A stretch of 24,297 nucleotides of DNA from positions 149 through 24,445 of the forward strand of contig DCGQ01000041.1 of NCBI GenBank assembly GCA_002314635.1, in the 5' to 3' direction. The DNA is from Clostridiales bacterium UBA1774 (GTDB lineage Bacteria; Bacillota; Clostridia; Oscillospirales; Oscillospiraceae). A program made the position numbers and the translations under genes. The notes below the pieces were generated by a model. The model was given only the letters and a program-made list of their open reading frames with translations, ran no database searches and was not told where the DNA came from. Shown here in pieces: positions 1 to 14,753 of the stretch (within the stretch, counting starts at the first letter, position 1; each line of letters opens with the position of its first letter).

Positions 1-250
1 GCGGCTGTTCCGGCAGATAGCCGATTCTGCGCTTCGCTTCCCGGGGCTGTTCAAATATGTCATAGCCGTCAATGGTCACGCTGCCCTCCGAGGCGGCCAG
101 ACAGCCGGTCATGATATTCATGGTTGTGGATTTCCCTGCGCCATTGGGGCCGAGAAAACCATAGATCTGTCCTTTTTCCACGGTGAAAGAAAGATCCGAT
201 ACCGCTGTATGGCTCCCATATCGTTTGGTCAGGTGCTGTACTTCGATCAC
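1..250 (-). CDS. ABC transporter ATP-binding protein, N-terminal part (gene continues past the window start)
   Basis: Reverse-strand translation from GTG at 248-250 gives (M)IEVQHLTKRYGSHTAVSDLSFTVEKGQIYGFLGPNGAGKSTTMNIMTGCL, with a canonical Walker A (GPNGAGKST). AGGAGG lies 7 nt upstream on the - strand. Confidence 0.8.
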   Translation of the reverse strand, partial: MIEVQHLTKRYGSHTAVSDLSFTVEKGQIYGFLGPNGAGKSTTMNIMTGCLAASEGSVTIDGYDIFEQPREAKRRIGYLPEQP

Positions 251-288
251 GAAAAGACCTCCTTACGGACTCATGTATTGCCGGTATC

Positions 289-294
289 AGTATA
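289..294 (-). promoter_or_regulatory. Putative extended -10 (TGcTATACT on - strand) for the ABC ATPase gene
   Basis: Minus strand reads ...GCTCGTGCTATACTGATACC, about 35 nt upstream of the GTG start. No good -35 was found. Confidence 0.3.
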
Positions 295-382
295 GCACGA
301 GCTTCTGAAAAATCATGCGAATTTCGGGAAGAAACTGTAACTTTCCCGTGAACCGGAGCTGAAATTCATTTCAGAAATGCCA

Positions 383-405
383 AATGGCGGCTGGCTGCCG
401 CCATT
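383..405 (-). terminator. Hairpin downstream of the MutS-like operon (AATGGCGGC-tggct-GCCGCCATT)
   Basis: Perfect 9-bp GC-rich stem with a 5-nt loop, directly after the stop at 414. The T-tract is moderate on both strands. Confidence 0.4.
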
Positions 406-413
406 TTAGTCAT

Positions 414-1910
414 TTATAATGTGATACCGCCGCGTTTCAGTGCATCCTCTGCATGGCTGACGCCCTCCGGTTCGCCGCGCACCACATGATAGGTAAAGCC
501 GTTCTGTTCATTCAGCAGGACCCGGATGGAACCCAGCCTGCTGCCCCACGGCAGTGTCTCCGTCAGACGGCTTCGGAAAATCGCAAGTTCATGCACATGA
601 GTCACCCAGATGCCTCTGGCGCCTGCCGCCATGCAGACGGCAATCACTTCGGCGGACAGGTCCCGCGTTTCATTGGGACCGGTGCCGGTCAGCGGTTCGT
701 TGAAAAGCACCATGCTCTCCCGTTCCAGTGCGCCAACCGTCCGCGCAATGCGGGTGGCCTCCTCTGTCAGCAGTCCCCGGCGTCCGTACTGCTGGCCATT
801 GGGTGCAAATACCGTGAGGATATTCTTCACCGGACTCAGCGCGGCTCTGGCTGCCGGAACCGGGAAACCCAGCTGACCCAGAAACTGGGTCAGTGCCACG
901 CTGAGCAGGAACACCGTTTTTCCGCCCTGATTGGCACCGGTGAGCAGCAGGATCTCGCCGCCTTCCTCCATGGTCAGGCTGTTGGGCACCGCCCGCTCTC
1001 CCCCGTCCAGAAGCAGCAGCGGATCGAACATATCTGTCATGTCAAAGACCTTCCGTTCTGCCGGGCAAAGCTCCGGGAAACAGAACGCCATGCCTTTCTC
1101 CCGCCAGAGCTTCATCAGACCGGAAGCTGCCAGACAAAGCAGCACATCCTTTTTCAGGCTGCGAAGCACCGCTGTCTCCCGCAGGACAAAGGTGGAAATG
1201 TCCTGCGATGCGGAAGCCACTGCACGCTGCAGCAGCATCCCGTCCATTTCGATCGCCCGGCGGGTCAGCATCATACGCCGCTTTTCCGGCTTCTTTTTGC
1301 TGCTGACATCGCCCTGCCACGGTTCCATCTGCAGCAGCTTCACCCGCTCCGGCTTCAGGCTTTCATCCAGATCAAAACCCAGTCGCATCTTTGCCGGGGA
1401 AACAAAACCGGCGCAGAGCGAGCGAAAATCCTCAGACACGGTCTGATAGCGCAGAGATTCGTGCATTCCGGTGAGCTGCGCAGAGAGTGCCTTCATTCCC
1501 TCGCTTTTCAGCGGCAGATCCCGAAACAGTCCGTCCAGTTCCTGAACTTTTTTCAGATAACTGTCCAGCCAGCTGAAATCGTCCAGTGAGAATCCAACAG
1601 CCATGGCATCATGACCGCCCCGGCGGGAGGAACCACCCCGTCCCTCCCAGCCATCCAGACAGTCCAGCAGCCGTTCCAGCGCGGGGATCAGCGCGGGGCA
1701 GTCCCGCACATCCTGCAATACTGCCTGTCGGTATTGCAGAAGCGAAAGATCATCCGTGAACAGCTCGCTCAGATCTCCCGCCGTCAGCCGATAATAACCG
1801 GAGGGAGAGCAGAATGCCGCCAGCCGTTCGATCTGAAGATCCTCCTCCGTCTGTGTCGGCACCGGCAGCGGTGCCGGTACATATCCCGCAGGGTACAGTA
1901 AACAACCCAT
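414..1910 (-). CDS. MutS domain-V family ATPase (paralog B), no mismatch-binding, clamp or Smr domains
   Basis: C-terminal half aligns to the MutS ABC-ATPase domain. Walker A is LLLTGANQGGKTV (canonical MutS: GPNMGGKST). Signature-like motif is GLLTEEATRIA. Walker B is VLFNEPLTGT (canonical MutS: LDEIGRGT, so D is replaced by N). H-loop is VTHVHEL. SD AAGGTGA lies 6 nt before the ATG at 1910. Confidence 0.75.
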   Translation of the reverse strand: MGCLLYPAGYVPAPLPVPTQTEEDLQIERLAAFCSPSGYYRLTAGDLSELFTDDLSLLQYRQAVLQDVRDCPALIPALERLLDCLDGWEGRGGSSRRGGHDAMAVGFSLDDFSWLDSYLKKVQELDGLFRDLPLKSEGMKALSAQLTGMHESLRYQTVSEDFRSLCAGFVSPAKMRLGFDLDESLKPERVKLLQMEPWQGDVSSKKKPEKRRMMLTRRAIEMDGMLLQRAVASASQDISTFVLRETAVLRSLKKDVLLCLAASGLMKLWREKGMAFCFPELCPAERKVFDMTDMFDPLLLLDGGERAVPNSLTMEEGGEILLLTGANQGGKTVFLLSVALTQFLGQLGFPVPAARAALSPVKNILTVFAPNGQQYGRRGLLTEEATRIARTVGALERESMVLFNEPLTGTGPNETRDLSAEVIAVCMAAGARGIWVTHVHELAIFRSRLTETLPWGSRLGSIRVLLNEQNGFTYHVVRGEPEGVSHAEDALKRGGITL

Positions 1911-1942
1911 GATATATCACCTTATCCGTTATCTGATTTGTC

Positions 1943-3715
1943 TCAGGAATCGGCCCGGAAAAGTCCCATCCCGACTTTCTGCCACTCCTGACCATCCATA
2001 TGCACGTCCAGTCCGCGTTCCTGCAGCTGTTTCAGCATTTCCGGCAGGCTGACGCCTGCTTTCGCCGCGACGGCTCTGGCGTGACTGTCCGGCGGAGGCG
2101 GTGCCTCCCGCAGCTGATACAGGTAGCGGATTCCCTCCGCGCCTGTTTCCGCAGTCATGACCATACTTTTCAGCTGCCCGGAAATCCGTTTTTCCGCAAA
2201 CAGCTCCTGCAGCCGGGGCCAGATATGATTAAAATGCGTCACCAGAATGTTTGTCACTTGTTTTTCTGACAGGGATGCCAGCAGGTCGGCACAAATATCG
2301 CCGCCCTCTTTGGCGCTGGTGCTGGTCATAGGTTCATTCAGCAGCATCAGACTGTCAGCCGTCATCTGCTGCCGGAGAACACCCAGTCTCTGTACCTCCA
2401 GACCCATGCGGCTGTCCGCACCGGTCTCGCTTTCACCGGCAGCAAAGAGGGTCAGCAGTGCATCCCGGGGCGCAAAGGAGGCCTCCTGTGCCGGAAGAAG
2501 CAGCCCCAGCTGTGCCAGAAACAGCAGTTGTCCGCACAGGATGAGCCAGCAGGTCTTACCGGAGCTGTTTGGGCCTGTCACCAGAATGCTGCCGCCGGGC
2601 GCAAGGTCGATATCATTGGGAACCGGCAGCAGTCCGGTACAGGTCTGCTCCGGCAGATACGCTTTCTTTGCGGACAGCACCCGTTCCGCTCCCACTGCCG
2701 GGCTGCACAGAGGTGCGCCCTTTTCCCGCAGCTTTCGGGCGAAATCGGCGGCAGCGGTATAAAACAGCAGCGCATCCCGCAGGCTCAGAAGCGTCTCCGA
2801 AGCATCCACCGGCAGCTTCCAGACTGCTTCCCGCTGCTTTGTCAGCGTGGTACGCAGTTCATACCCCACCTCACTGAGCAGGTATTCCTGAAACAGCGTG
2901 GCGGACCCGTTCTGCGGGAAGGCAAAACCATTGGTGATGCCGCTGCGCTCTCCCTCTGCTCCCGCTCCGGCAAACATACCCGGGCGGGGATAGCTCTCCT
3001 CCCGCGTTTCCGCAACCTCCAGTCCCACAATGCCCATGTGCCCGTCCATGCACACATCAATGGCAAAGGACCCAAGGCCTTTCCAATCCCGGTCCAGTCC
3101 GTCCAGCACCGCAAGCATATGCTCCGCATTTCCGCTGCGGCAGTTTTCCTCCGCCCAGTCCCGCAGTGTCCGCAGAACCGGACTCTGCAGCGGCAGCTTC
3201 GCCATACCGTCCCGCAGCAGGCAGAGGGCCTCTGCGGTTCCCCGTGCCTGCCGTTTCCGGAACATGGTCAGACGCAGCAGCTGGGCATAGCGGTTATCCG
3301 AGGCATTTTCCTCCAGAATATCCGCACCCTGCTTGCTCAGATTTTTTTCCAGCTTCAATACGGCCTTTTTTACGCCATCCATCGCCGCATCCACTCTGGA
3401 GACCCGAAGGCCGCCCATATTGTCCTGCACACCCTTTACTGCCAGTTCCAGCTCCGCAAGCCGCTCTGTCAGCCTTTTCAGGGTCTCCGTCAGTTCTGCA
3501 TTGTCAAGCAGCTCCGCAATGGTCTGCTGTCTGATTGCAATCGTCTCCGGGTCCCGGGTCAGCATGGGATTCAGGAAGCTCAGTGCCTCCTCCCCGTTTC
3601 TGCCGGGCAGCAGGAGTGCGCCCAGCCGTTCCAGTTCCAGATCCTGTTGGGAAAGGGAGATATCCATTTCCCCGCTGTGATCCCCGTTTGGCCAGAGAAG
3701 TGTGGTTCCTGTCAT
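1943..3715 (-). CDS. MutS domain-V family ATPase (paralog A)
   Basis: Walker A ILVTGPNSSGKTC, Walker-B-like LMLLNEPMTST (again N in place of D), H-loop LVTHFNHIW. The N-terminal region shares the DL.(I/L)ERL pattern with paralog B. GGAG lies 7 nt before the ATG. A 32-bp gap to paralog B implies an operon. Confidence 0.75.
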   Translation of the reverse strand: MTGTTLLWPNGDHSGEMDISLSQQDLELERLGALLLPGRNGEEALSFLNPMLTRDPETIAIRQQTIAELLDNAELTETLKRLTERLAELELAVKGVQDNMGGLRVSRVDAAMDGVKKAVLKLEKNLSKQGADILEENASDNRYAQLLRLTMFRKRQARGTAEALCLLRDGMAKLPLQSPVLRTLRDWAEENCRSGNAEHMLAVLDGLDRDWKGLGSFAIDVCMDGHMGIVGLEVAETREESYPRPGMFAGAGAEGERSGITNGFAFPQNGSATLFQEYLLSEVGYELRTTLTKQREAVWKLPVDASETLLSLRDALLFYTAAADFARKLREKGAPLCSPAVGAERVLSAKKAYLPEQTCTGLLPVPNDIDLAPGGSILVTGPNSSGKTCWLILCGQLLFLAQLGLLLPAQEASFAPRDALLTLFAAGESETGADSRMGLEVQRLGVLRQQMTADSLMLLNEPMTSTSAKEGGDICADLLASLSEKQVTNILVTHFNHIWPRLQELFAEKRISGQLKSMVMTAETGAEGIRYLYQLREAPPPPDSHARAVAAKAGVSLPEMLKQLQERGLDVHMDGQEWQKVGMGLFRADS

Positions 3716-3871: not shown

Positions 3872-6709
3872 ATGATAAGATTGGCTAAACTCACCAGAAT
3901 GGCCTTCGAGATCAATGGCGTCAACCGTTTTGTCATCGTTGATCCGGAGAAGGACAAGCTCTCCACCGTACTGCGGCGGATGGGTCTCACCGGCGTAAAG
4001 GTCGGCTGCGGCATCGGCGTCTGCGGTGCCTGCACCGTACTGATCGATGACGAGCCGGTTCGTTCCTGCACCAAGAAGATCGGCAGCATCCCCGAGAACA
4101 GCCGCATCCTCACCATTGAGGGCATCGGCGCTCCCGGTCGTCTGCATCCCCTGCAGCAGGCATGGATCACCTACGGCGGCATTCAGTGCGGCTTCTGCAC
4201 CCCTGGCTTCATCGTCTCCGCTTATGGTCTGCTGCTGAAGAATCCTAACCCCACCCGTGAAGAGGTTCGTGACTGGTTCCGCGTGCACAAGAACGTGTGC
4301 CGCTGCACCGGCTACAAGCCCATCGTGGACTCCGTCATGGCCGCTGCCGCTGTCATGCGCGGTGAAAAGACCATGGAGGACATCACCTACAAGTATCAGG
4401 GTGAGGACATCTACGGCTCCCGCTTCCCCCGTCCCACTGCTCTGGCCAAGGCTACCGGTCTTGCCGACTACGGCGATGATCTGGCCCTCAAGATGCCCGA
4501 CGGCGTTGCTTTCCTGGCTCCCGTGCTGGGCGAAGCCACCCATGCCAACATCATTGACATCGACGTGTCCGAAGCCGAGAAGATGCCCGGCGTCATCAAG
4601 GTTCTGACCGCCAAGGATGTTAAGGGCACCAATAACATTGACTTCCCCGCCGTTGTACCGCGTCAGCGCGGCAGCGGTCTGACCGAGTTCCCCATCATCT
4701 GCGGCGAGAAACTCTGCCGTCAGGGCGACGTGGTGGCTCTGGTCTGTGCCGATACCCGTGACCATGCCCGCGAGGCCGCCAAGAAGGTCAAGCAGACTCT
4801 GGAAGTTCTGCCCGCCTACATGACGCTGCCCGAGGCTGTCATGCCCAACTCCATCCAGCTGCACAAGAATGTGCCCAACTTCTACATGGAGCAGCCCTGC
4901 TACAAGGGCAATGCCCCCGAGGTCATCGAGGATGCTCCCATTGTCGTGGAAGGTGCTTTCCACAGCCAGCATGAGCCCCACCTGCCCATCGAGCCCGATA
5001 CCGTTCAGGCTTACTGGGGGGCTGACGGCATGATGACCGTTCAGTGCAAGGCTCAGGCTCTCGACGAAGCCCGCGACGGCATCGCACAGGGCTGCGGCAT
5101 TCCCAAGGAAAACGTCCGCGTGATCGAAAACACCGTCGGCGGCTCCTTCGGCTACGCTGTCACCGCCAACACCTACGCGCTGGCTGTCACCGCTGTCCAG
5201 AATCTGGATATGCCTGTCAGCATGACCCTCAGCTGGGATGAGTTCCAGCATATGAGCGGCAAGCGCAGCGCCACCTACACCAACGGCCGTCTGGCTGTCA
5301 GCAAGGATGGCAAGATTCTGGCTGCCGAATATGACTGTGGTCTGGATCACGGCGCTTACGGCGTGGTTGCCGGCAAGATCTTCAACAATCTGGTGTCCGT
5401 GGGCTTCCACGGCTACAACGTGCCCGCTTTCCGCGGTCTGGCTCGCGGCGTCGCCACCAACCAGGGCTTCAACGCTGCTTACCGTGGATTCGGCGCTCCT
5501 CAGATCTACACCTGCACCGAGGCCCTGATCGACATGGCCGCTGAGAAGTGCGGCATGGATCCCTGGGAGTTCCGCTATCAGAACGTGGCGCAGCCCGGCG
5601 ATCTGACCATCAACAGCCGTCCCTATCAGGATTACCCCTACAAGCATATGCTGGAGCTGATCAAGCCCGCTTACGACCAGTACAAGGCGGAAGCCGAGGA
5701 AGGCAAGAAGCAGGGCAAGGCTGTCGGCGTCGGCATTTCTCTGGGCGGCTTCCTCATCACCATCGGCATGTTCGACCAGGCTGAAGCAGCTCTGGAACTG
5801 ATGCCCAACGGTGATGTGACCCTGTATGACACCTGGGAAGACATCGGACAGGGCGGCGATATCGGCTCCCTGACCCATGCCGTGAAGGCTCTGGAGCCGC
5901 TCGGCATCAAGCCCAGCCAGGTTCGTCTGGTCATGAACGACTCCAAGACCTGCCCGGATACCGGCATTGCCGCCGCTTCCCGCAGCCATTACATGGGCGG
6001 CCGCGCCATCATCGACGCTGCCAACCAGTTGATGGAGGCCATGAAGAAGGCTGACGGCACCTACCGTACCTATGACGAGATGATCGCAGAGAACATCGCC
6101 GTCAAGTACATCGGTCACTATGACCAGTTCAACATCGGTCTTCCTCCCGGACTGGATCCCAACACCGGCGAGGGCGAGAAGAACCCCACCTATATGTACG
6201 CTGTCAACACCTGCCTGGTGGAAGTCGATACTGCTTCCGGCAAAACGCAGGTCAAGCGCTGGACCACCGTTGCCGACATCGGCGTCATCGGCAACCGTCT
6301 GGCTGTCGAAGGTCAGGCTTACGGCGGCCTGAGCCACTCCATCGGCTTCGCTCTGAGTGAGAACTATCTGGCTGACAAGAAGACCAGCACGCTGGCCGGT
6401 GCCGGTGTTCCCACCATCGACATGATTCCCGATGATTATAACGTGATGTTTGTTGAGACTCCCAGACCCGATGGTCCTCACGGAAGCTGCGGCTGCTCCG
6501 AGTGCTTCCAGTCCTCCGGTCATATGGCCGTCATCAACGCCATCAAGGATGCCTGCGGCGTGCGGATCTTCCAGCTGCCCGCCACTCCCGACAAGGTCAA
6601 GGCTGCTCTGGCCGACAAGGCCGCCGGCAAGGAAGAGAAGCCTGAATTCTGGTTCCTCGGCTCCGATATGGACGACGAGCTGGAGCTCATCAAGGCCAAT
6701 CCCATGTAA
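3872..6709 (+). CDS. mop: Mop-type aldehyde oxidoreductase (xanthine dehydrogenase family; N-terminal 2x[2Fe-2S] plus molybdopterin-binding domains, no FAD domain)
   Basis: N-terminus GVKVGCGIGVCGACTVLIDDEPVRSC...GGIQCGFCTPGFIVSAYGLL...CRCTGYKP matches the two [2Fe-2S] cluster motifs. Length (about 945 aa) and many blocks (GFGAPQ, WEDIGQGGDIG, YMYAVN, RPDGPHGSCGCSE) match the Desulfovibrio gigas MOP architecture. The start is ambiguous between ATG 3872, TTG 3881 (GAAAGGA is 9 nt upstream) and ATG 3899. Confidence 0.85.
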   Translation: MIRLAKLTRMAFEINGVNRFVIVDPEKDKLSTVLRRMGLTGVKVGCGIGVCGACTVLIDDEPVRSCTKKIGSIPENSRILTIEGIGAPGRLHPLQQAWITYGGIQCGFCTPGFIVSAYGLLLKNPNPTREEVRDWFRVHKNVCRCTGYKPIVDSVMAAAAVMRGEKTMEDITYKYQGEDIYGSRFPRPTALAKATGLADYGDDLALKMPDGVAFLAPVLGEATHANIIDIDVSEAEKMPGVIKVLTAKDVKGTNNIDFPAVVPRQRGSGLTEFPIICGEKLCRQGDVVALVCADTRDHAREAAKKVKQTLEVLPAYMTLPEAVMPNSIQLHKNVPNFYMEQPCYKGNAPEVIEDAPIVVEGAFHSQHEPHLPIEPDTVQAYWGADGMMTVQCKAQALDEARDGIAQGCGIPKENVRVIENTVGGSFGYAVTANTYALAVTAVQNLDMPVSMTLSWDEFQHMSGKRSATYTNGRLAVSKDGKILAAEYDCGLDHGAYGVVAGKIFNNLVSVGFHGYNVPAFRGLARGVATNQGFNAAYRGFGAPQIYTCTEALIDMAAEKCGMDPWEFRYQNVAQPGDLTINSRPYQDYPYKHMLELIKPAYDQYKAEAEEGKKQGKAVGVGISLGGFLITIGMFDQAEAALELMPNGDVTLYDTWEDIGQGGDIGSLTHAVKALEPLGIKPSQVRLVMNDSKTCPDTGIAAASRSHYMGGRAIIDAANQLMEAMKKADGTYRTYDEMIAENIAVKYIGHYDQFNIGLPPGLDPNTGEGEKNPTYMYAVNTCLVEVDTASGKTQVKRWTTVADIGVIGNRLAVEGQAYGGLSHSIGFALSENYLADKKTSTLAGAGVPTIDMIPDDYNVMFVETPRPDGPHGSCGCSECFQSSGHMAVINAIKDACGVRIFQLPATPDKVKAALADKAAGKEEKPEFWFLGSDMDDELELIKANPM

Positions 6710-6967: not shown

Positions 6968-7939
6968 TTACTTCTTCTCCTCTTCCGCAATGGCGTCACG
7001 CATATGGGTATCTGCAATCACATTCTGCATATTGTAGTAATCCAGCACGCCCAGATGTCCGTCCCGCAGGGCGGCAGCCATGGCCATGGGCACCTCGGCT
7101 TCGGCCTCCACCACCTTGGCCTTCATTTCCTGTGTCTTGGCCTTCATCTCCTGCTCGTTGGCGATGGCCATGGCGCGGCGTTCCTCTGCCTTGGCCTGTG
7201 CGATCTTCTTGTCGGCCTCAGCCTGATCGGCCTGCAGCTGTGCGCCGATGTTGCGGCCCACATCAATATCCGCGATGTCGATGGAGAGGATCTCAAAAGC
7301 AGTGCCTGCTTCCAGACCCTTGCTCAGCACGGTCCGGGAGATCAGGTCCGGGTTTTCCAGCACTTCCTTGTGGGTAGCTGCGGAGCCGATGGTGGTGACT
7401 ACGCCTTCGCCCACTCGGGCAATGACGGTCTGTTCACCGGCACCGCCGACCAGACGGTCGATATTGGCACGGACGGTGACCTTCGCCTTGGCCTTCAGTT
7501 CAATACCGTCCTTGGCGATGGCGGCAACCACGGGGGTCTCGATAACCTTGGGATTGACGCTCATCTGCACGGCCTCCAGCACGTCACGACCGGCAAGGTC
7601 GATGGCAGCGGCCCGTTCAAACTCCAGCGGGATATCGGCACGCTGAGCCGCGATCAAAGCATTGACCACCCGGTCCACATTGCCGCCGGCCAGATAGTGT
7701 GCTTCCAGCTTGTTGATGGACAGCTTGATGCCGCCCTTCACAGCCTTGATCATCGGATTGACGATCAGCGGCGGGGATACACGGCGAAGGCGCATTCCCA
7801 CCAGAGCAAACAAACCCACCCGCACATTGGAGGACAGAGCGCTGATCCACAGACCTACCGGAATGAACCGGAACAGCAGGATCAGGAAAAGGATAATGAC
7901 TACAACCAAAACAATCGGTATTGTGGCTAGTGCTGGCAT
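6968..7939 (-). CDS. floA: Flotillin-like protein FloA (SPFH/band-7, YqfA family)
   Basis: Near-colinear similarity to B. subtilis FloA (LWISALAAGV...LVGMRLRRV...[21 protein letters not shown]...[23 protein letters not shown]...[19 protein letters not shown]). I take the ATG at 7939 ([10 protein letters not shown]...) as the start, because AAAGGAG lies 8 nt upstream. The track's ATG at 7957 has no usable SD and overlaps the preceding gene. Confidence 0.9.
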
Positions 7940-7943
7940 AAAA

Positions 7944-8447
7944 TTAACTCCTTTCATCTATCGGGCATACCACGATGCGGCTGCCCTCAACTTCGATAAC
8001 GCGCACCGCTGCGCCTTTATCTACAAATTCACCGCGGGTGACTACATCCATCCGTTTCCCGCTGAAATCCGCAATACCGGCGGGACGCAGCACCGTGATC
8101 GTGCTGCCGGTTTTGTCCAGCAGATCGGTATTCTCCTCGCTGGACGAAAAGCCCTGTTCCTTGTCCGTATTCTCCCGCAGAACCAGAAACCGGGGCAGCT
8201 TGCCCTTGGAGATCATTCTGGCTCCCACGACCAGAAACAGGAGGACGATGACGGCGGCAATCAGAACCAGCAGCACTCCCTGCGCTGCCGTTCTGGCAGA
8301 CAGGAGAATGTCCAGTCCCAGCGCCACAATCCCGATAACGCCCATAATCCCGAAGCCGGGTGCAAGGATCTCCGCTGTCAGAAATCCCAGACCGACCACC
8401 AGCAGGATCAGCGACCAGATGGTAAATCCGCCGAAAAACACGGGCAT
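7944..8447 (-). CDS. NfeD-family membrane protein (short form, TM helices plus C-terminal OB-fold)
   Basis: Hydrophobic N-terminal half, then a C-terminal [47 protein letters not shown] beta-barrel typical of NfeD partners of flotillins. GAAGGAG lies 10 nt before the ATG. The stop is 4 nt from the floA start. Confidence 0.75.
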
Positions 8448-8891: not shown

Positions 8892-10283
8892 TCAAATGTC
8901 ACTTTCCTGCAAAGTTTCCGCAGGTGCGGGGTTCGCTTTGCTGCCTGCCCAGCCGGGCAGTTCCATACCTGCCATCTGGAACATTTCGTTCAGCGGCGGA
9001 ATGCTCTTCATCAGGCCGGAAATGTACCCGGCGGTGGCATTCTTTCCGTCCTTTCCTTCGCCGGAATCCCAGACCGTGACCTTGTCGATCTTCACATTCT
9101 TCACGGCCTCTACCTGAATCCGGATCAGATCTTCCATTTTATCCGTCAGCATCAGCTTTGCGGCGGCATTGGCGTCTCCGCCGGCAGCTTCTACGATGGC
9201 ACGCAGACCTTCGGCCTGCTTCATCAGGATTTCCTTCTGGCCTTCGGCTTCCGCGATCATTCTGGCGCGGATTGCGTCTGCTTCACCGGCAGCGCGGCGG
9301 CGAATCTGCTCTGCCTCGGCTTCCGCTTCCAGCTCTGCCTTCCGCTTCAGGATCTCAGTGGATACGATGACGTCTGCTTCCTGCGTGGCCTTTTCTCGGG
9401 CGGCACGAGCCGCTTCTGCCTGCTGCTCCGCCACATAGGCTTCTTCCATGGCCTTGGCCGCCTGAATCTTCTCAGCCGCGGTTGCAAGACGCAGAGCCTC
9501 GGCTTCCTTCTCACGGCGCTGGGCTTCGGACATGGCCACCTGCACCTTGGCAGCATTTTCGCCCTGAATAGCCAGAGCATTTGCTTCCGAAACCTGCACA
9601 CGCTGATCTCTGTCCGCATTGGCCACGCCGATGGAACCGTCTCTGTCCTTTTCGGCCACGGTCTTTTTCGCATCGTTGATGGCCTTGGCTGCTGCTTCCT
9701 TACCCAGAGCCTCAATGTACCCGCTTTCATCGCTGATATCCGTGACATTCACGTTGATCAGGCGCAGACCGATTTTTTTCAGCTCCGTCTCCACATTGCG
9801 GCTGACCGCATCCAGAAACTTATCGCGGTCCGCGTTGATCTCCTCAATGTCCATGGTGGCAATCACCAGACGAAGCTGACCGAAGATGATATCCTTCGCC
9901 AGTTCCTGAATCTGCGGCAGCTTCAGACCCAGCAGACGCTCGGCAGCATTCTGCATCACACCGTTTTCCGTGGAGATGCCCACGGTGAAGGTGCTGGGTA
10001 CATTAATTCGGATATTCTGGCGGCTCAGCGCGTTCTGCAGATCCACGGAAATGCTGATGGGGGTCAGATCCAGATACTCCGCAGCCTGCACCACCGGCCA
10101 CACAAAGGCCGCGCCGCCATGAATACATTTGCTGGAACGAACCGTACCGTCCCGGTTGCTGCCCACATTACCGTAGACCACCATGACCTTGTCCGAAGGG
10201 CACTTTTTGTACCGTTTCAGAACCGCGGCCATCAGGCCGAAGGCGGCTACCACGATCACAGCAATCAAAATGAGTGTTTCCAT
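8892..10283 (-). CDS. floT: FloT-like flotillin (SPFH/band-7 with a long Ala/Glu-rich coiled coil)
   Basis: N-terminal TM, then an SPFH domain (VYGNVG...ISVDLQNALSRQNIRINVPSTFTVGI...). An EA-repeat coiled coil and a C-terminal flotillin tail follow, as in B. subtilis FloT/YuaG. I prefer the start at the second ATG (METLIL...), with AGGAGG 6 nt upstream. Confidence 0.85.
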   Translation of the reverse strand: METLILIAVIVVAAFGLMAAVLKRYKKCPSDKVMVVYGNVGSNRDGTVRSSKCIHGGAAFVWPVVQAAEYLDLTPISISVDLQNALSRQNIRINVPSTFTVGISTENGVMQNAAERLLGLKLPQIQELAKDIIFGQLRLVIATMDIEEINADRDKFLDAVSRNVETELKKIGLRLINVNVTDISDESGYIEALGKEAAAKAINDAKKTVAEKDRDGSIGVANADRDQRVQVSEANALAIQGENAAKVQVAMSEAQRREKEAEALRLATAAEKIQAAKAMEEAYVAEQQAEAARAAREKATQEADVIVSTEILKRKAELEAEAEAEQIRRRAAGEADAIRARMIAEAEGQKEILMKQAEGLRAIVEAAGGDANAAAKLMLTDKMEDLIRIQVEAVKNVKIDKVTVWDSGEGKDGKNATAGYISGLMKSIPPLNEMFQMAGMELPGWAGSKANPAPAETLQESDI

Positions 10284-10285
10284 TT

Positions 10286-10975
10286 TCATCCTCCTCTTTC
10301 TGTCTTTTTCATGACAATCAGTTCACCCTCCCGGGAAACGCCGATCACGGTCACCGGTGTTCCGGTGGGAATGGGTTCTTCTCCATCGGTTACGGCATTG
10401 CACTCTGTCAGGCTGCCCTGAATGACCACATTGACCTTACCTCTGCCCTGCCGTTTTTCCGGGATTCGCAGGTAAGCTTCTCCGGTCAGTCCCACCGCAT
10501 TCAGCGGGTCAACGGTCCCGTCCGCCTGCAGCCGCAGGAACAGCCGCATGACCACCGCAGTACCCACCAGAGCGGCAGTACCCAGCAGCAGGCCGGTCAG
10601 AATTGCGGCAATCCACGGATGCCCTGCCCGGGACACTGCCAGCGCTGCCCAGCCGTATACGGCGAAAAAATTGATGATACCCCGCAGCGTAAACAGATGC
10701 AGCGACAGGCTGTCGCCTCCGTCTCCCCCGGTATGGACATCGTGATCCGGTACTCCATCTCCGTCCGCATCCGGAAAGTCGGGAATACCATCTCCATCCA
10801 GATCAGGGCCGTCCGGGATTCCGTCCCCGTCAGTATCCAGATCCCCATCTCCGTCATGGTCGCCCAGACCCAGCAGGCTCATGACAAGCTGAATCACCAT
10901 CAGCAGGGTTGCCGGTATCGCGATACATGCATAGATACGTTCCAGCGCTGTCAAGGACAGCCACCAGTGATTCAT
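10286..10975 (-). CDS. NfeD-like (YuaF-like) membrane protein with an inserted Asp-rich Ca-binding-type repeat tract
   Basis: TM helices, then a C-terminal OB-fold (GLTGEAYLRIPEKRQGRGKVNVVIQGSLTECNAVTDGEEPIPTGTPVTVIGVSREGELIVMK). A DTDGDGIPDGPDLDGDGIPDFPDADGDGVPD tract lies between them. The stop overlaps the floT start region. GAGGGGAGAGAGG lies upstream of the ATG. Confidence 0.7.
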   Translation of the reverse strand: MNHWWLSLTALERIYACIAIPATLLMVIQLVMSLLGLGDHDGDGDLDTDGDGIPDGPDLDGDGIPDFPDADGDGVPDHDVHTGGDGGDSLSLHLFTLRGIINFFAVYGWAALAVSRAGHPWIAAILTGLLLGTAALVGTAVVMRLFLRLQADGTVDPLNAVGLTGEAYLRIPEKRQGRGKVNVVIQGSLTECNAVTDGEEPIPTGTPVTVIGVSREGELIVMKKTERGG

Positions 10976-13775: not shown

Positions 13776-14753
13776 ATGCTTTCCAACAAAGAAAACTATC
13801 TGCGCGTACTGCATCGGGAAATCCCCGAAGCTATTCCCCGTGCCATGTACTCCTGGGTCAAGCCTGCCTGCCTGTATGAGCACCGGAATCCGGACGGCAG
13901 CGGTTTTGACTATTTTGGTGTGGAATATGTCACCAGCAAGGAATCCGGCTTTGCCTCCGGTTTCATTCCCAAGCCGGGTAAGTTCATGATCACCGATATC
14001 ACCAAATGGCGCGACATTGTCAAAATTCCCGATTTCAGTCATGTAGACTGGGAGAAGATGGCCGCTGACGATCTGAAACAGTTCGATCGTTCCAAGACGC
14101 TGATCATGCCCGACGCTGTCACCGGTTTCTTCCAGGGCCTGATCAACTTCATGGGCTTCACCGAAGGCCTTCTCGCCTGCTATGAAGAGCCGGAAGAAGT
14201 CAAGGCCATGATGGAAGCCATCTGCGATTATCAGATCGGTGTTGCCAAGAACATCATTCAATATTACAAGCCCGACTGCCTCTGGCTGCCTGACGATATC
14301 TGCACGGCCCGTGCCCCCTTCGTCAGCAAAGAGACCTTCGAGGAACTTTTCATGCCCTATTGGAAGCGCTATGTTGCCGTGTACACAGAAGCGGGCATTC
14401 CCTCTCAGCTTCATTGCTGCGGCGCTGCCGATATTCTGGTGGATGATTTTGTGGAATGCGATTTTGCCTCCTGGGAAGCCCAGCCGCAGAACGATTTCCG
14501 CGGTCTGAAAGCTCGTCACGGTAATCGCATGGCCATTATCGGCGGTTTCGACACCGGCCGTTTGATGGATCCTTCCGTCAGCGAAGAAGAAGTCCGGGAA
14601 ACCACCCGCAGCTTCCTGACCGATCTGGCGCCCGGCGGCGGTCTTGCATGGTTCGGCGCTTTCGTATTCGGCGATCCCGAATCTGAGCGGAATAAGCGCG
14701 CCCGCTGGATCAACGAGGAATTTGAAGCGCTGAAATCCAAGTTCTACGCCTGA
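13776..14753 (+). CDS. Uroporphyrinogen decarboxylase (URO-D) family protein, MtaA/CmuA-like methyltransferase fold
   Basis: About 325 aa. The N-terminus NYLRVLHREIPEAIPRAM resembles the ...N.LRAL.GE.PD.VP opening of URO-D/MtaA-like proteins. The size is typical of the corrinoid:substrate methyltransferase subfamily. Assignment is by recall only. Confidence 0.55.
   Translation: MLSNKENYLRVLHREIPEAIPRAMYSWVKPACLYEHRNPDGSGFDYFGVEYVTSKESGFASGFIPKPGKFMITDITKWRDIVKIPDFSHVDWEKMAADDLKQFDRSKTLIMPDAVTGFFQGLINFMGFTEGLLACYEEPEEVKAMMEAICDYQIGVAKNIIQYYKPDCLWLPDDICTARAPFVSKETFEELFMPYWKRYVAVYTEAGIPSQLHCCGAADILVDDFVECDFASWEAQPQNDFRGLKARHGNRMAIIGGFDTGRLMDPSVSEEEVRETTRSFLTDLAPGGGLAWFGAFVFGDPESERNKRARWINEEFEALKSKFYA

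Follow-up and report, generated by a model that had tools for sequence, protein, structure and literature searches.

Two adjacent genes, designated here gene A and gene B, constituted a divergent, fast-evolving Oscillospiraceae branch of the MutS4A/MutS4B type, with a putative one-to-one orthology of A to MutS4A and of B to MutS4B that only modest HMM score margins back; the pair is a member of a known family of unproven function, not a new kind of system. They were located in a 24,297-nt stretch of Clostridiales bacterium UBA1774 contig DCGQ01000041.1 (hereafter the window). The sequence-only reading had found no subfamily to which the pair could be assigned, and this gap was closed by profile comparison, BLASTP, and gene arrangement.

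Both minus-strand open reading frames were real, and their description as MutS-family paralogs in a single operon was borne out. A ribosome-binding site preceded the second gene, a sigma-70-like promoter lay upstream of the first, and a GC-rich hairpin directly followed the gene B stop codon (Table 1). The promoter was called by consensus match alone, the region-wide count of such matches was no higher than in shuffled sequence, and it sat inside a 156-bp divergent intergenic region common to gene A and the neighbouring oxidoreductase gene. The hairpin was called on the plus strand with a weak T-tail on the minus strand, and it likely terminates the operon of A and B. The start of a separate gene, for an ABC-transporter ATPase, lay further past this hairpin. 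The divergent neighbour of gene A, correctly read as a redox enzyme, was a Mo-cofactor/2Fe-2S oxidoreductase.

Table 1. Features of the MutS4-type locus (window positions in nucleotides unless residues are indicated)
Feature	Position	Strand	Remarks
Gene A, MutS4A-position subunit	1943-3715	minus	590 aa; ORF call and MutS_V match
Gene B, MutS4B-position subunit	414-1910	minus	498 aa; ORF call and MutS_V match
A-B spacer with AAGGTGA ribosome-binding site	1911-1942	minus	32 bp
Sigma-70-like promoter TTGACT-17-TAAAAT	3775-3747	minus	10/12 consensus matches; ~30 bp upstream of gene A
GC-rich hairpin directly after gene B stop	385-400		Hairpin scan
Gene A Walker A, GPNSSGKT	2552-2575	minus	Fits GxxxxGK[ST]
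Gene A Walker B, LMLLNE	2333-2350	minus	Asn460 for Mg-coordinating Asp; Glu461 kept
Gene B Walker A, GANQGGKT	915-938	minus	Family-wide B-type motif
Gene B Walker B, MVLFNE	696-713	minus	Asn404 for Asp; Glu405 kept
Gene A core/lever helices	~residues 28-210 and 272-331		AlphaFold2 model
Gene A clamp-position beta-hairpin	residues 216-238		AlphaFold2 model; followed by disordered loop 245-267
Gene A ATPase	~residues 347-540		
Gene A C-terminal helix-turn-helix and extra helices	residues 544-582		
Gene B lever helices	~residues 19-166 and 217-271		AlphaFold2 model
Gene B clamp-position hairpin	residues 175-195		AlphaFold2 model
Gene B basic disordered loop, SSKKKPEKRRMMLTRR	residues 200-215		After clamp hairpin
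Gene B ATPase	~residues 289-480		Protein stops past first helix-turn-helix helix

MutS4 was initially described as adjacent MutSac-only paralogs with overlapping stop and start codons (Lin, Nei and Ma 2007, PMC2190696), the MutS4A/MutS4B type was later extended (Kim et al. 2017, PMC5742357), and the stop/start overlap was termed a 'signature structure' in both papers. The window pair displayed a MutS ATPase without domains I, II, and Smr, an arrangement as adjacent same-strand paralogs, and homology to published carriers; the overlap of the A stop and the B start was absent from the window. Two of the carriers in Table S3 of Kim et al. (PMC5742357), Thermanaerothrix daxensis and Alicyclobacillus shizuokensis, corresponded to loci L092 and L077, respectively, with the ORFs equated to the listed proteins by species and gene arrangement. 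BLASTP against the T. daxensis pair gave E values of 1e-20 and 6e-20 for A and of 2e-27 and 4e-22 for B; B was slightly closer to T. daxensis 4A than to 4B, and pairwise BLAST did not discriminate between the two assignments. The first gene went to the position-1 profile and the second gene to the position-2 profile in six of six pairs by small HMM score margins, and each window protein scored better with the profile of its own position (A: 105.8 for position 1 vs 99.3 for position 2; B: 153.1 for position 2 vs 129.8 for position 1). In a neighbor-joining tree, the core 4A and 4B clades included neither of the two Oscillospiraceae clades, and the nearest outgroups of A were mixed NE-type proteins. 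Two other subfamilies were tried and rejected: (i) MutS1, for which A and B scored 52-61 bits vs cutoffs of 480 and 642 (TIGR01070 and NF003810) and had no PF01624 or PF05188 match, and (ii) MutS2, for which they scored 46.6 and 66.4 bits vs a TIGR01069 cutoff of 400 and had no Smr or KOW match.

The MutS domain-V core was recovered in both proteins by an HMM search, with Pfam MutS_V (PF00488) scores of 66.1 bits for A and 51.3 bits for B (gathering score, 30.2 bits), and Walker A, signature region, Walker B Glu, and H-loop His lay in register with the MutS superfamily; hhalign against a MutS1 profile gave E values of 7e-19 and 7e-24 for the two window proteins. No Pfam match to domain I (PF01624), domain II (PF05188), Smr, or KOW was found in A or B, in agreement with the earlier statement that domains I, II, and Smr were lacking. 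The further claim that only domain V had been kept did not survive: the AlphaFold2 models (A: pLDDT 81.8, pTM 0.79; B: pLDDT 82.3, pTM 0.81) displayed a core/lever region and a clamp-like hairpin, both models aligned end-to-end with MutS, MSH2, MSH3, MSH6, and MutS2 chains (~520-640 columns for MutS, MSH2, MSH3, and MutS2), and Foldseek matched them to MutS/MSH with E values of 6e-18 (A; ~610 columns) and 5e-19 (B), the structural matches starting at the MutS core domain. The B profile aligned with MSH2 residues 362-818 and MutS2 residues 92-500. Nor was the helix-turn-helix missing as had been supposed, since A aligned through that of MutS domain V and B reached its first helix; the sole C-terminal MutS part missing from the pair was the tetramerisation tail. 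Each subunit was a MutS minus domains I and II, with domain III, a reduced domain IV hairpin, and an ABC-type ATPase domain V, and the anatomy of MutS4-type proteins is that of a lever-clamp-ATPase machine rather than of domain V alone. Paralogy of A and B extended across their full length: their profiles aligned from end to end (E 2.4e-53), which overturned the view that their N-termini shared only a short motif. Both proteins were acidic overall and the clamp hairpin of A was not basic; the most basic patch of B-type subunits was the clamp tip family-wide.

The two ATPase sites were canonical in Walker A and altered in Walker B. Both Walker A loops, previously called non-canonical, had the GxxxxGK[ST] form with the MutS Asn kept, and they differed from MutS1 at variable positions only. 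The replacement of the Walker B Asp by Asn with retention of Glu was confirmed by alignment with MutS1 in both proteins and all homologs, N460 and E461 of gene A being invariant in 35 homologs and N404 and E405 of gene B in 48. The TH(xx)EL motif ascribed to both proteins was present in B (VTHVHEL) and absent from A (VTHFNH). The signature position was Ser in A and Gly in B, and the MutS Arg after Walker B was absent from both. In A of the window the H-loop position was still His and the signature position still Ser, where core MutS4A proteins have Phe and Gly, and the site asymmetry of the window pair may therefore differ from that of the core MutS4 family.

Relatives were encoded in at least 563 species genomes of bacteria and archaea, and MutS4-type pairs spanned thousands of protein clusters. 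All six Oscillospiraceae-type loci carried the tandem pair, as did ~55 of 80 loci in reference genomes from many phyla of bacteria and archaea, a layout that makes the proposed obligate heterodimer reasonable. The reference pairs mostly had a 4-bp start/stop overlap, which implies translational coupling, and the Oscillospiraceae-type relatives had spacers of 1-15 bp. In the relatives, the Walker A loop of the first gene read GPNQGGKT and that of the second GANQGGK[ST], with NE Walker B in both. No DNA-metabolism gene, translation-related gene, or recurrent enzyme family was found as a conserved neighbour across the family. A dynamin-like GTPase adjoined the pair in 13 of 85 loci, in some lineages, and this recurrent neighbour gave no obvious pointer to DNA.

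The reading that we favour, and to which we give slightly less than an even chance, is that A and B form an asymmetric clamp, a heterodimer whose ATP switch is slow, and that this clamp works on DNA, possibly during recombination. We infer the heterodimer, its ATP-switch behaviour, its DNA substrate, and its role in recombination along the following lines. A and B would associate 1:1 via their ATPase domains, as in MutS/MSH dimers, and dimerisation would create two composite ATP sites and a lever/clamp channel. Judging from E. coli MutS D693N, the Walker B Asn together with the missing Arg at both sites would weaken Mg2+/ATP binding and leave basal hydrolysis, and the resulting switch would be slow and highly Mg2+-sensitive. 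The sites would be unequal, as A would supply a trans-acting signature Ser to the site of B, and B a Gly to the site of A. The basic loop at the clamp tip of B could contact the nucleic-acid backbone, and the complex may clamp a DNA structure without mismatch reading, in the manner of MSH4-MSH5, and so modulate recombination. Given the lack of domain I, a role outside mismatch repair, as had been suggested, is plausible.

Two published experiments bear on this reading: (i) E. coli MutS D693N lost Mg2+, bound ATP ~15-fold more weakly, kept basal ATPase, lost mismatch stimulation, and displayed slow switching (PMC2857095), and (ii) the M. yongonense MutS4 operon placed in M. smegmatis raised homeologous recombination (27/36 vs 5/16 colonies) and gave recombination tracts of 121 vs 44 nt (PMC5742357). 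The M. yongonense study tested gain of function in a heterologous host, with small samples and a distant actinobacterial member. To our knowledge, it is the sole functional experiment on the MutS4 family, and we know of no biochemistry of any member. Points that weigh against the favoured reading are the overall acidity of both proteins, the non-basic clamp hairpin of A, and gene neighbourhoods that held no conserved DNA-metabolism gene but, in some lineages, a dynamin-like GTPase.

In B. subtilis, MutS2 splits collided ribosomes. The window heterodimer might similarly be a translation/RNA factor that docks on the ribosome or another ribonucleoprotein and remodels it with ATP: its III-IV-V domain content without I and II equals the N-terminal part of MutS2, onto which the B profile aligned (see above), the Foldseek matches included the MutS2-disome structure 7qv3, and a basic clamp tip suits RNA as well as DNA. 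However, KOW and Smr, which recruit MutS2 to collided ribosomes (PMC10897456), were missing from A and B, the mutS2 model TIGR01069 gave 47-66 bits against its cutoff of 400, and no translation-related gene was a conserved neighbour, which makes such a factor very unlikely. Action on protein was considered as well, with the pair as a MutS-fold ATPase that reactivates or matures a cofactor enzyme, as KamC is annotated to do for lysine 5,6-aminomutase, and with the Mo-cofactor oxidoreductase as the candidate client. NF052383 (lysine 5,6-aminomutase reactivase ATPase KamC) was the top NCBIfam match for A and B, KamC (~508 aa, ATPase at ~300-430) matched B in layout, lysine 5,6-aminomutase needs an ATP-dependent auxiliary protein E2 (PMC3958899), and the oxidoreductase stayed beside the pair in L001 and L003. 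But the NF052383 scores of the window proteins (72.7 and 69.6 bits, ATPase core only) lay far from the cutoff of 300 bits, KamC scores of ~70-86 bits across the window proteins and 77 relatives were no better than their MutS1/MutS2 scores, and none of the 77 relatives was a KamC; no aminomutase or B12 gene and no kamDE cluster occurred in the 24-kb window or six related loci. The oxidoreductase was 80-89% identical among the loci where it adjoined the pair, and it was not adjacent at the more distant L005 and L013-L016; because its adjacency was limited to the closest relatives, it amounted to local synteny, and a functional link to the redox neighbour was not supported. No enzyme family recurred beside the pair across the family. 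A reactivase is highly improbable.

Defence against phages or plasmids, or membership of a mobile element, with a fast-evolving ATPase pair that senses foreign nucleic acid, would accord with the pace of divergence (A and B 56-57% identical to their counterparts where the oxidoreductase was 89% identical), with the patchy distribution of MutS4, the traces of its horizontal transfer, and its place in a predicted genomic island of M. yongonense, and with the dynamin-like GTPase beside some loci. Against this, PADLOC returned one P-loop-only match (mad8, E 7e-4, 24 residues) with no system-level match and no partner genes, A and B had no nuclease or other effector domain, and the pair had the same GC content as its flanks. 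The pair did not lie in a defence island: in the window and six other contexts it was surrounded by housekeeping genes, and neither defence genes nor integrases nor repeats occurred near it. We regard a defence role as having a slim chance. It is also unlikely, if somewhat less so, that MutS4-type pairs, the Oscillospiraceae branch included, are a widespread class of Mg-poor, slow-switching heterodimeric clamps with a target in neither repair nor recombination. They could then serve as a nucleotide-gated scaffold for membrane or nucleoid remodelling or for sensing of foreign elements, a view prompted by a Walker B Asn that is universal, by degeneration of the trans-acting motifs, and by operon-like linkage to a dynamin-like GTPase in several phyla. 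The window clade, whose A subunit kept a catalytically complete site, would for that reason be a heterodimer of its own that specialised independently.

We know of no curated family model that names MutS4-type pairs. Several points were absent from both MutS4 papers (PMC2190696, PMC5742357): the lever-clamp-ATPase anatomy, the constant Walker B Asn in both subunits, the trans-acting signature residue unlike between subunits, and a fast-evolving gut/rumen Oscillospiraceae variant with another site-degeneracy pattern. If the preferred role in recombination is true, the pair could affect the ease of diverged-DNA exchange among gut Clostridia.

Besides KamC (see above), the pair was compared with four known systems. 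The N-terminal region of MutS2 (RqcU) shared core/lever, clamp, and ATPase with the window proteins, with profile and fold alignments over nearly the whole proteins, but MutS2 is a homodimer with DE Walker B, KOW, and Smr, whereas the window pair would be a paralog heterodimer with NE. MSH4-MSH5 is a heterodimer of MutS paralogs without domain I that clamps on recombination intermediates and does not act in mismatch repair, and among known systems it would be the closest functional analogue of the mechanism proposed here. Both MSH4 and MSH5 are of the MutS1 lineage, with domain II retained and a canonical DE Walker B, and neither was specifically related in sequence to the window pair. E. coli MutS D693N (PDB 3k0s) carried the same Walker B Asp-to-Asn change as the window pair, but there it was engineered, as a lone change, into a full-length MutS1 that still has the Arg following Walker B and whose two subunits both carry the signature Ser, whereas a natural family may have compensating changes. 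Compared to MutS4A/MutS4B, A of the window was ~80 aa longer (lever insertion plus C-terminal extension) and the 32-bp spacer stood in place of the diagnostic 4-bp stop/start overlap; the two systems shared same-strand paralogs of ~500-600 aa in which standard searches detect the ATPase domain only, NE Walker B, N-terminal DLxL...RQ motifs, and a GPN first and GAN second Walker A.

The window pair, composed of the 590-aa product of gene A (WIN_A) and the 498-aa product of gene B (WIN_B), belonged securely to the MutS4 superclade. MutS4A and MutS4B were reported from Thermoanaerobacter, the Chloroflexus group, Thermoplasma, and Ferroplasma as adjacent paralogs with the MutS ATPase domain only, the A stop overlapping the B start, and their function was described as unstudied (Lin, Nei and Ma 2007, PMC2190696). 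The carrier list was extended by Kim et al. 2017 (PMC5742357), whose Table S3 has Thermanaerothrix daxensis, Alicyclobacillus shizuokensis, Mesoaciditoga, Thermoanaerobacterium, and Meiothermus. Two loci recovered here came from these species, L092 from T. daxensis and L077 from A. shizuokensis; for the latter, Kim et al. list MutS4B alone, in agreement with the A copy of L077 being cut by the contig end. Given these shared species and the shared gene arrangement, the widespread family recovered is the published MutS4. WIN_B matched T. daxensis MutS4A (E = 2e-27 over residues 54–486) and MutS4B (E = 4e-22), and WIN_A matched the same pair at E = 1e-20 and 6e-20; this homology, together with the Table S3 species, placed the pair in the MutS4 type, although the sequence-only reading had found it unassignable to any subfamily. 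The RT-PCR primers of the Mycobacterium yongonense MutS4 operon, translated to peptides, gave no match to the family.

One-to-one A/B orthology of the window pair was not secure. HMMs of the core positions (position 1 and position 2 being the first and second genes of core MutS4 pairs) assigned A-type proteins to position 1 and B-type proteins to position 2 in 6/6 Oscillospiraceae-type pairs, with small margins (WIN_A: 105.8 for position 1 vs 99.3; WIN_B: 153.1 for position 2 vs 129.8). Both Oscillospiraceae clades lay outside the core clades in an NJ tree that did not settle A/B orthology, and pairwise BLAST did not separate 4A from 4B for either window protein. When A was run in a full HMMER scan, about eight clusters at 50% identity formed a tight clade, beyond which came an NE-type continuum with no clean A/B sorting.

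The two-gene arrangement of the sequence-only reading was recovered as two minus-strand ORFs, and a separate ABC-transporter ATPase gene began beyond the hairpin downstream of B.

Coordinates of the pair, its neighbours, and related genes at other loci (L-numbers; other positions refer to the window)
Feature	Position	Strand	Description
Gene A	1943-3715	minus	ORF, 590 aa
Gene B	414-1910	minus	ORF, 498 aa
A-B spacer			32 bp; carries AAGGTGA ribosome-binding site 5' of B
Sigma-70-like promoter	3775-3747		TTGACT-17-TAAAAT; within 156-bp region common to A and divergent gene
GC-rich hairpin			directly after B stop codon
Oxidoreductase	3872-6709		Mo-cofactor
FloA	6968-7957	minus	flotillin-like
Second SPFH/Band-7 gene	8892-10289	minus
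URO-D-family genes	13776-14753	plus	window
	L003:11384-12469; L005:511-1578
Position-1 (MutS4A) examples	L008:6460-8004; L092:5830-7362		VTF; signature Gly
Single genes with DE Walker B	L017:5980-7626; L018:726-2378; L020:730-2388		MVLLDE, LVLMDE
Single-gene ~583-aa clade	L019, L021, L022, L025, L028-L030, L034, L035
Dynamin-like GTPase genes	L061, L083, L090, L046, L010, and eight other loci		outside window

The MutS domain-V assignment held in an HMM search, both proteins exceeding the Pfam MutS_V gathering score of 30.2 bits (A: 66.1 bits; B: 51.3 bits). The motifs, at verified coordinates, were (i) GPNSSGKT plus LMLLNE in A and (ii) GANQGGKT plus MVLFNE in B. Both Walker A loops, previously regarded as non-canonical, matched GxxxxGK[ST] with the MutS Asn retained, and differed from MutS1 only at variable positions. 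Alignment with genuine MutS1 (LDEIGRGTS) bore out the replacement of the Walker B Asp by Asn, with the next Glu retained, in both A and B; since the Asn never varied among 35 homologs of A and 48 of B, it is not an artefact of sequencing or a quirk of one strain. A few single-gene relatives had a canonical DE Walker B, so the Asn is characteristic of the superclade rather than absolute. The Arg following Walker B in MutS1, whose mutation gives E. coli R697A, the "ATPase-asymmetry mutant" named in the title of PDB 1ng9, was lost from both subunits, and the trans-supplied MutS signature residue (E. coli Ser668 equivalent) corresponded to Ser435 of A and Gly379 of B. At the H-loop and signature positions, window A retained His (VTHF) and Ser (DSRMG), where core MutS4A had Phe and Gly. 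These two replacements were found across the widespread position-1 proteins, and they imply that one ATP site would be degenerate in most of the MutS4 family.

The AlphaFold2 models built on family alignments were confident for A (pLDDT 81.8, pTM 0.79) and B (pLDDT 82.3, pTM 0.81), and shared one architecture, running from long helices at the N terminus through a two-stranded hairpin, a disordered loop, and further helices to the ATPase. Foldseek against the PDB matched only MutS, MSH2, MSH3, MSH6, and MutS2 chains (E = 1e-17 to 5e-19), including MutS-beta chains with only domains III–V ordered, and the alignments spanned the whole protein (about 520–640 columns; TM 0.5–0.64); in a PDB profile search, the B-family profile aligned to MSH2 residues 362–818 and MutS2 residues 92–500. 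On these matches, the N-terminal regions formerly left unassigned are, as modelled, the MutS core/lever (domain III) plus, in the clamp (domain IV) position, a reduced element, and the description of A and B as domain V only has to be abandoned. Their N-terminal homology to MutS rests on the fold matches and the PDB profile search, the MutS1 profile–profile comparison reaching only the ATPase and the helices just before it. From the MutS plan, only domain I (mismatch-binding), domain II (connector), and Smr were missing in A and B, all three listed as missing, along with the clamp, by the sequence-only reading; the C-terminal helix-turn-helix, which it also listed as missing, was aligned throughout in A, and that statement stood only in part for B, which ended after the first helix. 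Rather than sharing only a short N-terminal motif, A and B were paralogous over their full lengths (profile–profile E = 2.4e-53, spanning A 6–561 and B 4–506), with pairwise identities of 29% in the C-terminal 259 residues and 27% in the N-terminal 82 residues. A basic patch was present at the clamp tip in B-type subunits family-wide; in window B the basic loop covers residues 200–215.

Close homologs of A (586–591 aa) and B (494–509 aa) were found on the same contigs of Oscillospiraceae metagenome-assembled genomes, and intact pairs were carried by L001 (586 + 509 aa), L003 (591 + 430 aa), and L005 (553 + 556 aa). In three lineages, one of them represented by a Thermaceae genome (L008), more remote B relatives (about 500 aa) each formed the downstream member of a tandem pair and began 4 bp ahead of the first gene's stop codon. 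Relatives were present in at least 563 genomes (one genome per species scanned), from lineages that include Bacillota, Chloroflexota, Actinomycetota, Proteobacteria, Thermotogota, Spirochaetota, Verrucomicrobiota, and Thermoplasmata. Of 80 loci retrieved, about 55 contained a pair, usually with a 4-bp gene overlap, whose first gene had GPNQGGKT plus hhhhNE and second gene GANQGGK[ST] plus hhhFNE. A search with an actinomycete B protein gave at least 8,000 candidates at E <= 1e-20; among the matches listed, names were only generic (e.g., "MutS-related protein") and the named Mycobacterium MutS4 was not retrieved. Clostridia and Oscillospiraceae also had MutS-like genes that stood alone rather than in pairs and formed a clade of their own (~583 aa; GANQGGKT...MILMNE); several lay beside two recurring ORF families whose sequences resemble those of the glycogen-metabolism proteins GlgC and GlgB. 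The clade may represent another subfamily, possibly a MutS3-like one.

The pair diverged much faster than the neighbouring oxidoreductase: identities to the window in L001 and L003, respectively, were 89% and 80% for the oxidoreductase, 56% and 45% for A, and 57% and 53% for B. A functional link to the oxidoreductase was rejected, since the gene was kept only in these near relatives and was gone beside distant pairs; its adjacency is thus local synteny. FloA and the second SPFH gene lay in the 3–6 kb range from the pair, probably by coincidence because neither was kept beside it in L001 or L003. URO-D-family genes lay about 1.5–10 kb from the pair in the window and at L003 and L005, with only 28% identity between the window copy and that of L003. 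Links to FloA, SPFH, or URO-D were likewise rejected, these neighbours not being conserved. No universally conserved neighbour was found across 85 loci. The best recurrent one was a dynamin-like GTPase (Dynamin_N/MMR_HSR1, ~550–650 aa), encoded within 5 kb of a MutS4-type pair at 13/85 loci in bacteria and archaea; at four loci from four phyla it was on the same strand and abutted or overlapped the pair (-13, -16, -1, and -3 bp), an arrangement suggestive of a three-gene operon in some lineages.

KamC was the top NCBIfam match for both proteins, but its scores of about 70 bits fell far short of the 300-bit cutoff, were confined to the ATPase core, and did not surpass those of MutS1 or MutS2; with 0/77 relatives tested qualifying and no aminomutase context at the locus, KamC membership was rejected and a KamC-like reactivase is highly improbable. 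A literature search found no primary paper on KamC. A MutS2-like ribosome factor, suggested by a domain content equal to the N-terminal part of MutS2, is unlikely given that KOW and Smr were missing from both proteins. Equally doubtful is a role in defence: rapid evolution of the pair and traces of horizontal transfer in MutS4 would suit one, but no effector domain was present, PADLOC gave nothing beyond a P-loop match, and every context examined was made up of housekeeping genes, so that the defence islands raised by the sequence-only reading were not encountered.

The pair displayed a lever–clamp–ATPase fold, conserved and often translationally coupled tandem genes, and an NE Walker B that was invariant in A as well as in B. 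A and B would pair 1:1 as a heterodimer whose two composite ATP sites are unequal; B's site, completed by the Ser from A, would be the more canonical. MSH4–MSH5 holds a DNA structure between its levers without mismatch reading, and by analogy the most likely substrate of the pair would be a DNA structure gripped in the same manner. The best experimental guide to the effect of the natural Asn would be E. coli MutS D693N (PMC2857095), in which the Mg2+ site was empty, ATP binding was ~15-fold weaker, basal ATPase was kept and strongly Mg-dependent, mismatch stimulation was lost, switching was slow, and repair was reduced; going by this mutant, the natural family would likely be a slow, highly Mg2+-sensitive switch, and a dead ATPase would not be expected. 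The M. yongonense MutS4 operon in M. smegmatis gave more homeologous recombination (27/36 vs 5/16 colonies) and longer tracts (121 vs 44 nt) (PMC5742357). This only functional datum fits the DNA-clamp reading; because it comes from one small experiment with a distant member in a heterologous host, a role of the pair on DNA and in recombination is proposed tentatively, a little short of being judged probable.

Systems of this kind have been on record since 2007, and the pair is not categorically new. Neither PMC2190696 nor PMC5742357 mentions the lever/clamp anatomy, the Walker B Asn as a universal feature, the asymmetry of the trans-acting motifs, or the Oscillospiraceae variant, and MutS4 is a widely distributed "known unknown" that merits biochemistry. 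Compared to core MutS4, the Oscillospiraceae clade had 1–32 bp spacers in place of the diagnostic stop/start overlap; in view of these spacers, the secure superclade membership, the unsettled orthology, and the retained His and Ser, the window pair is classed as a divergent variant of the MutS4 type.
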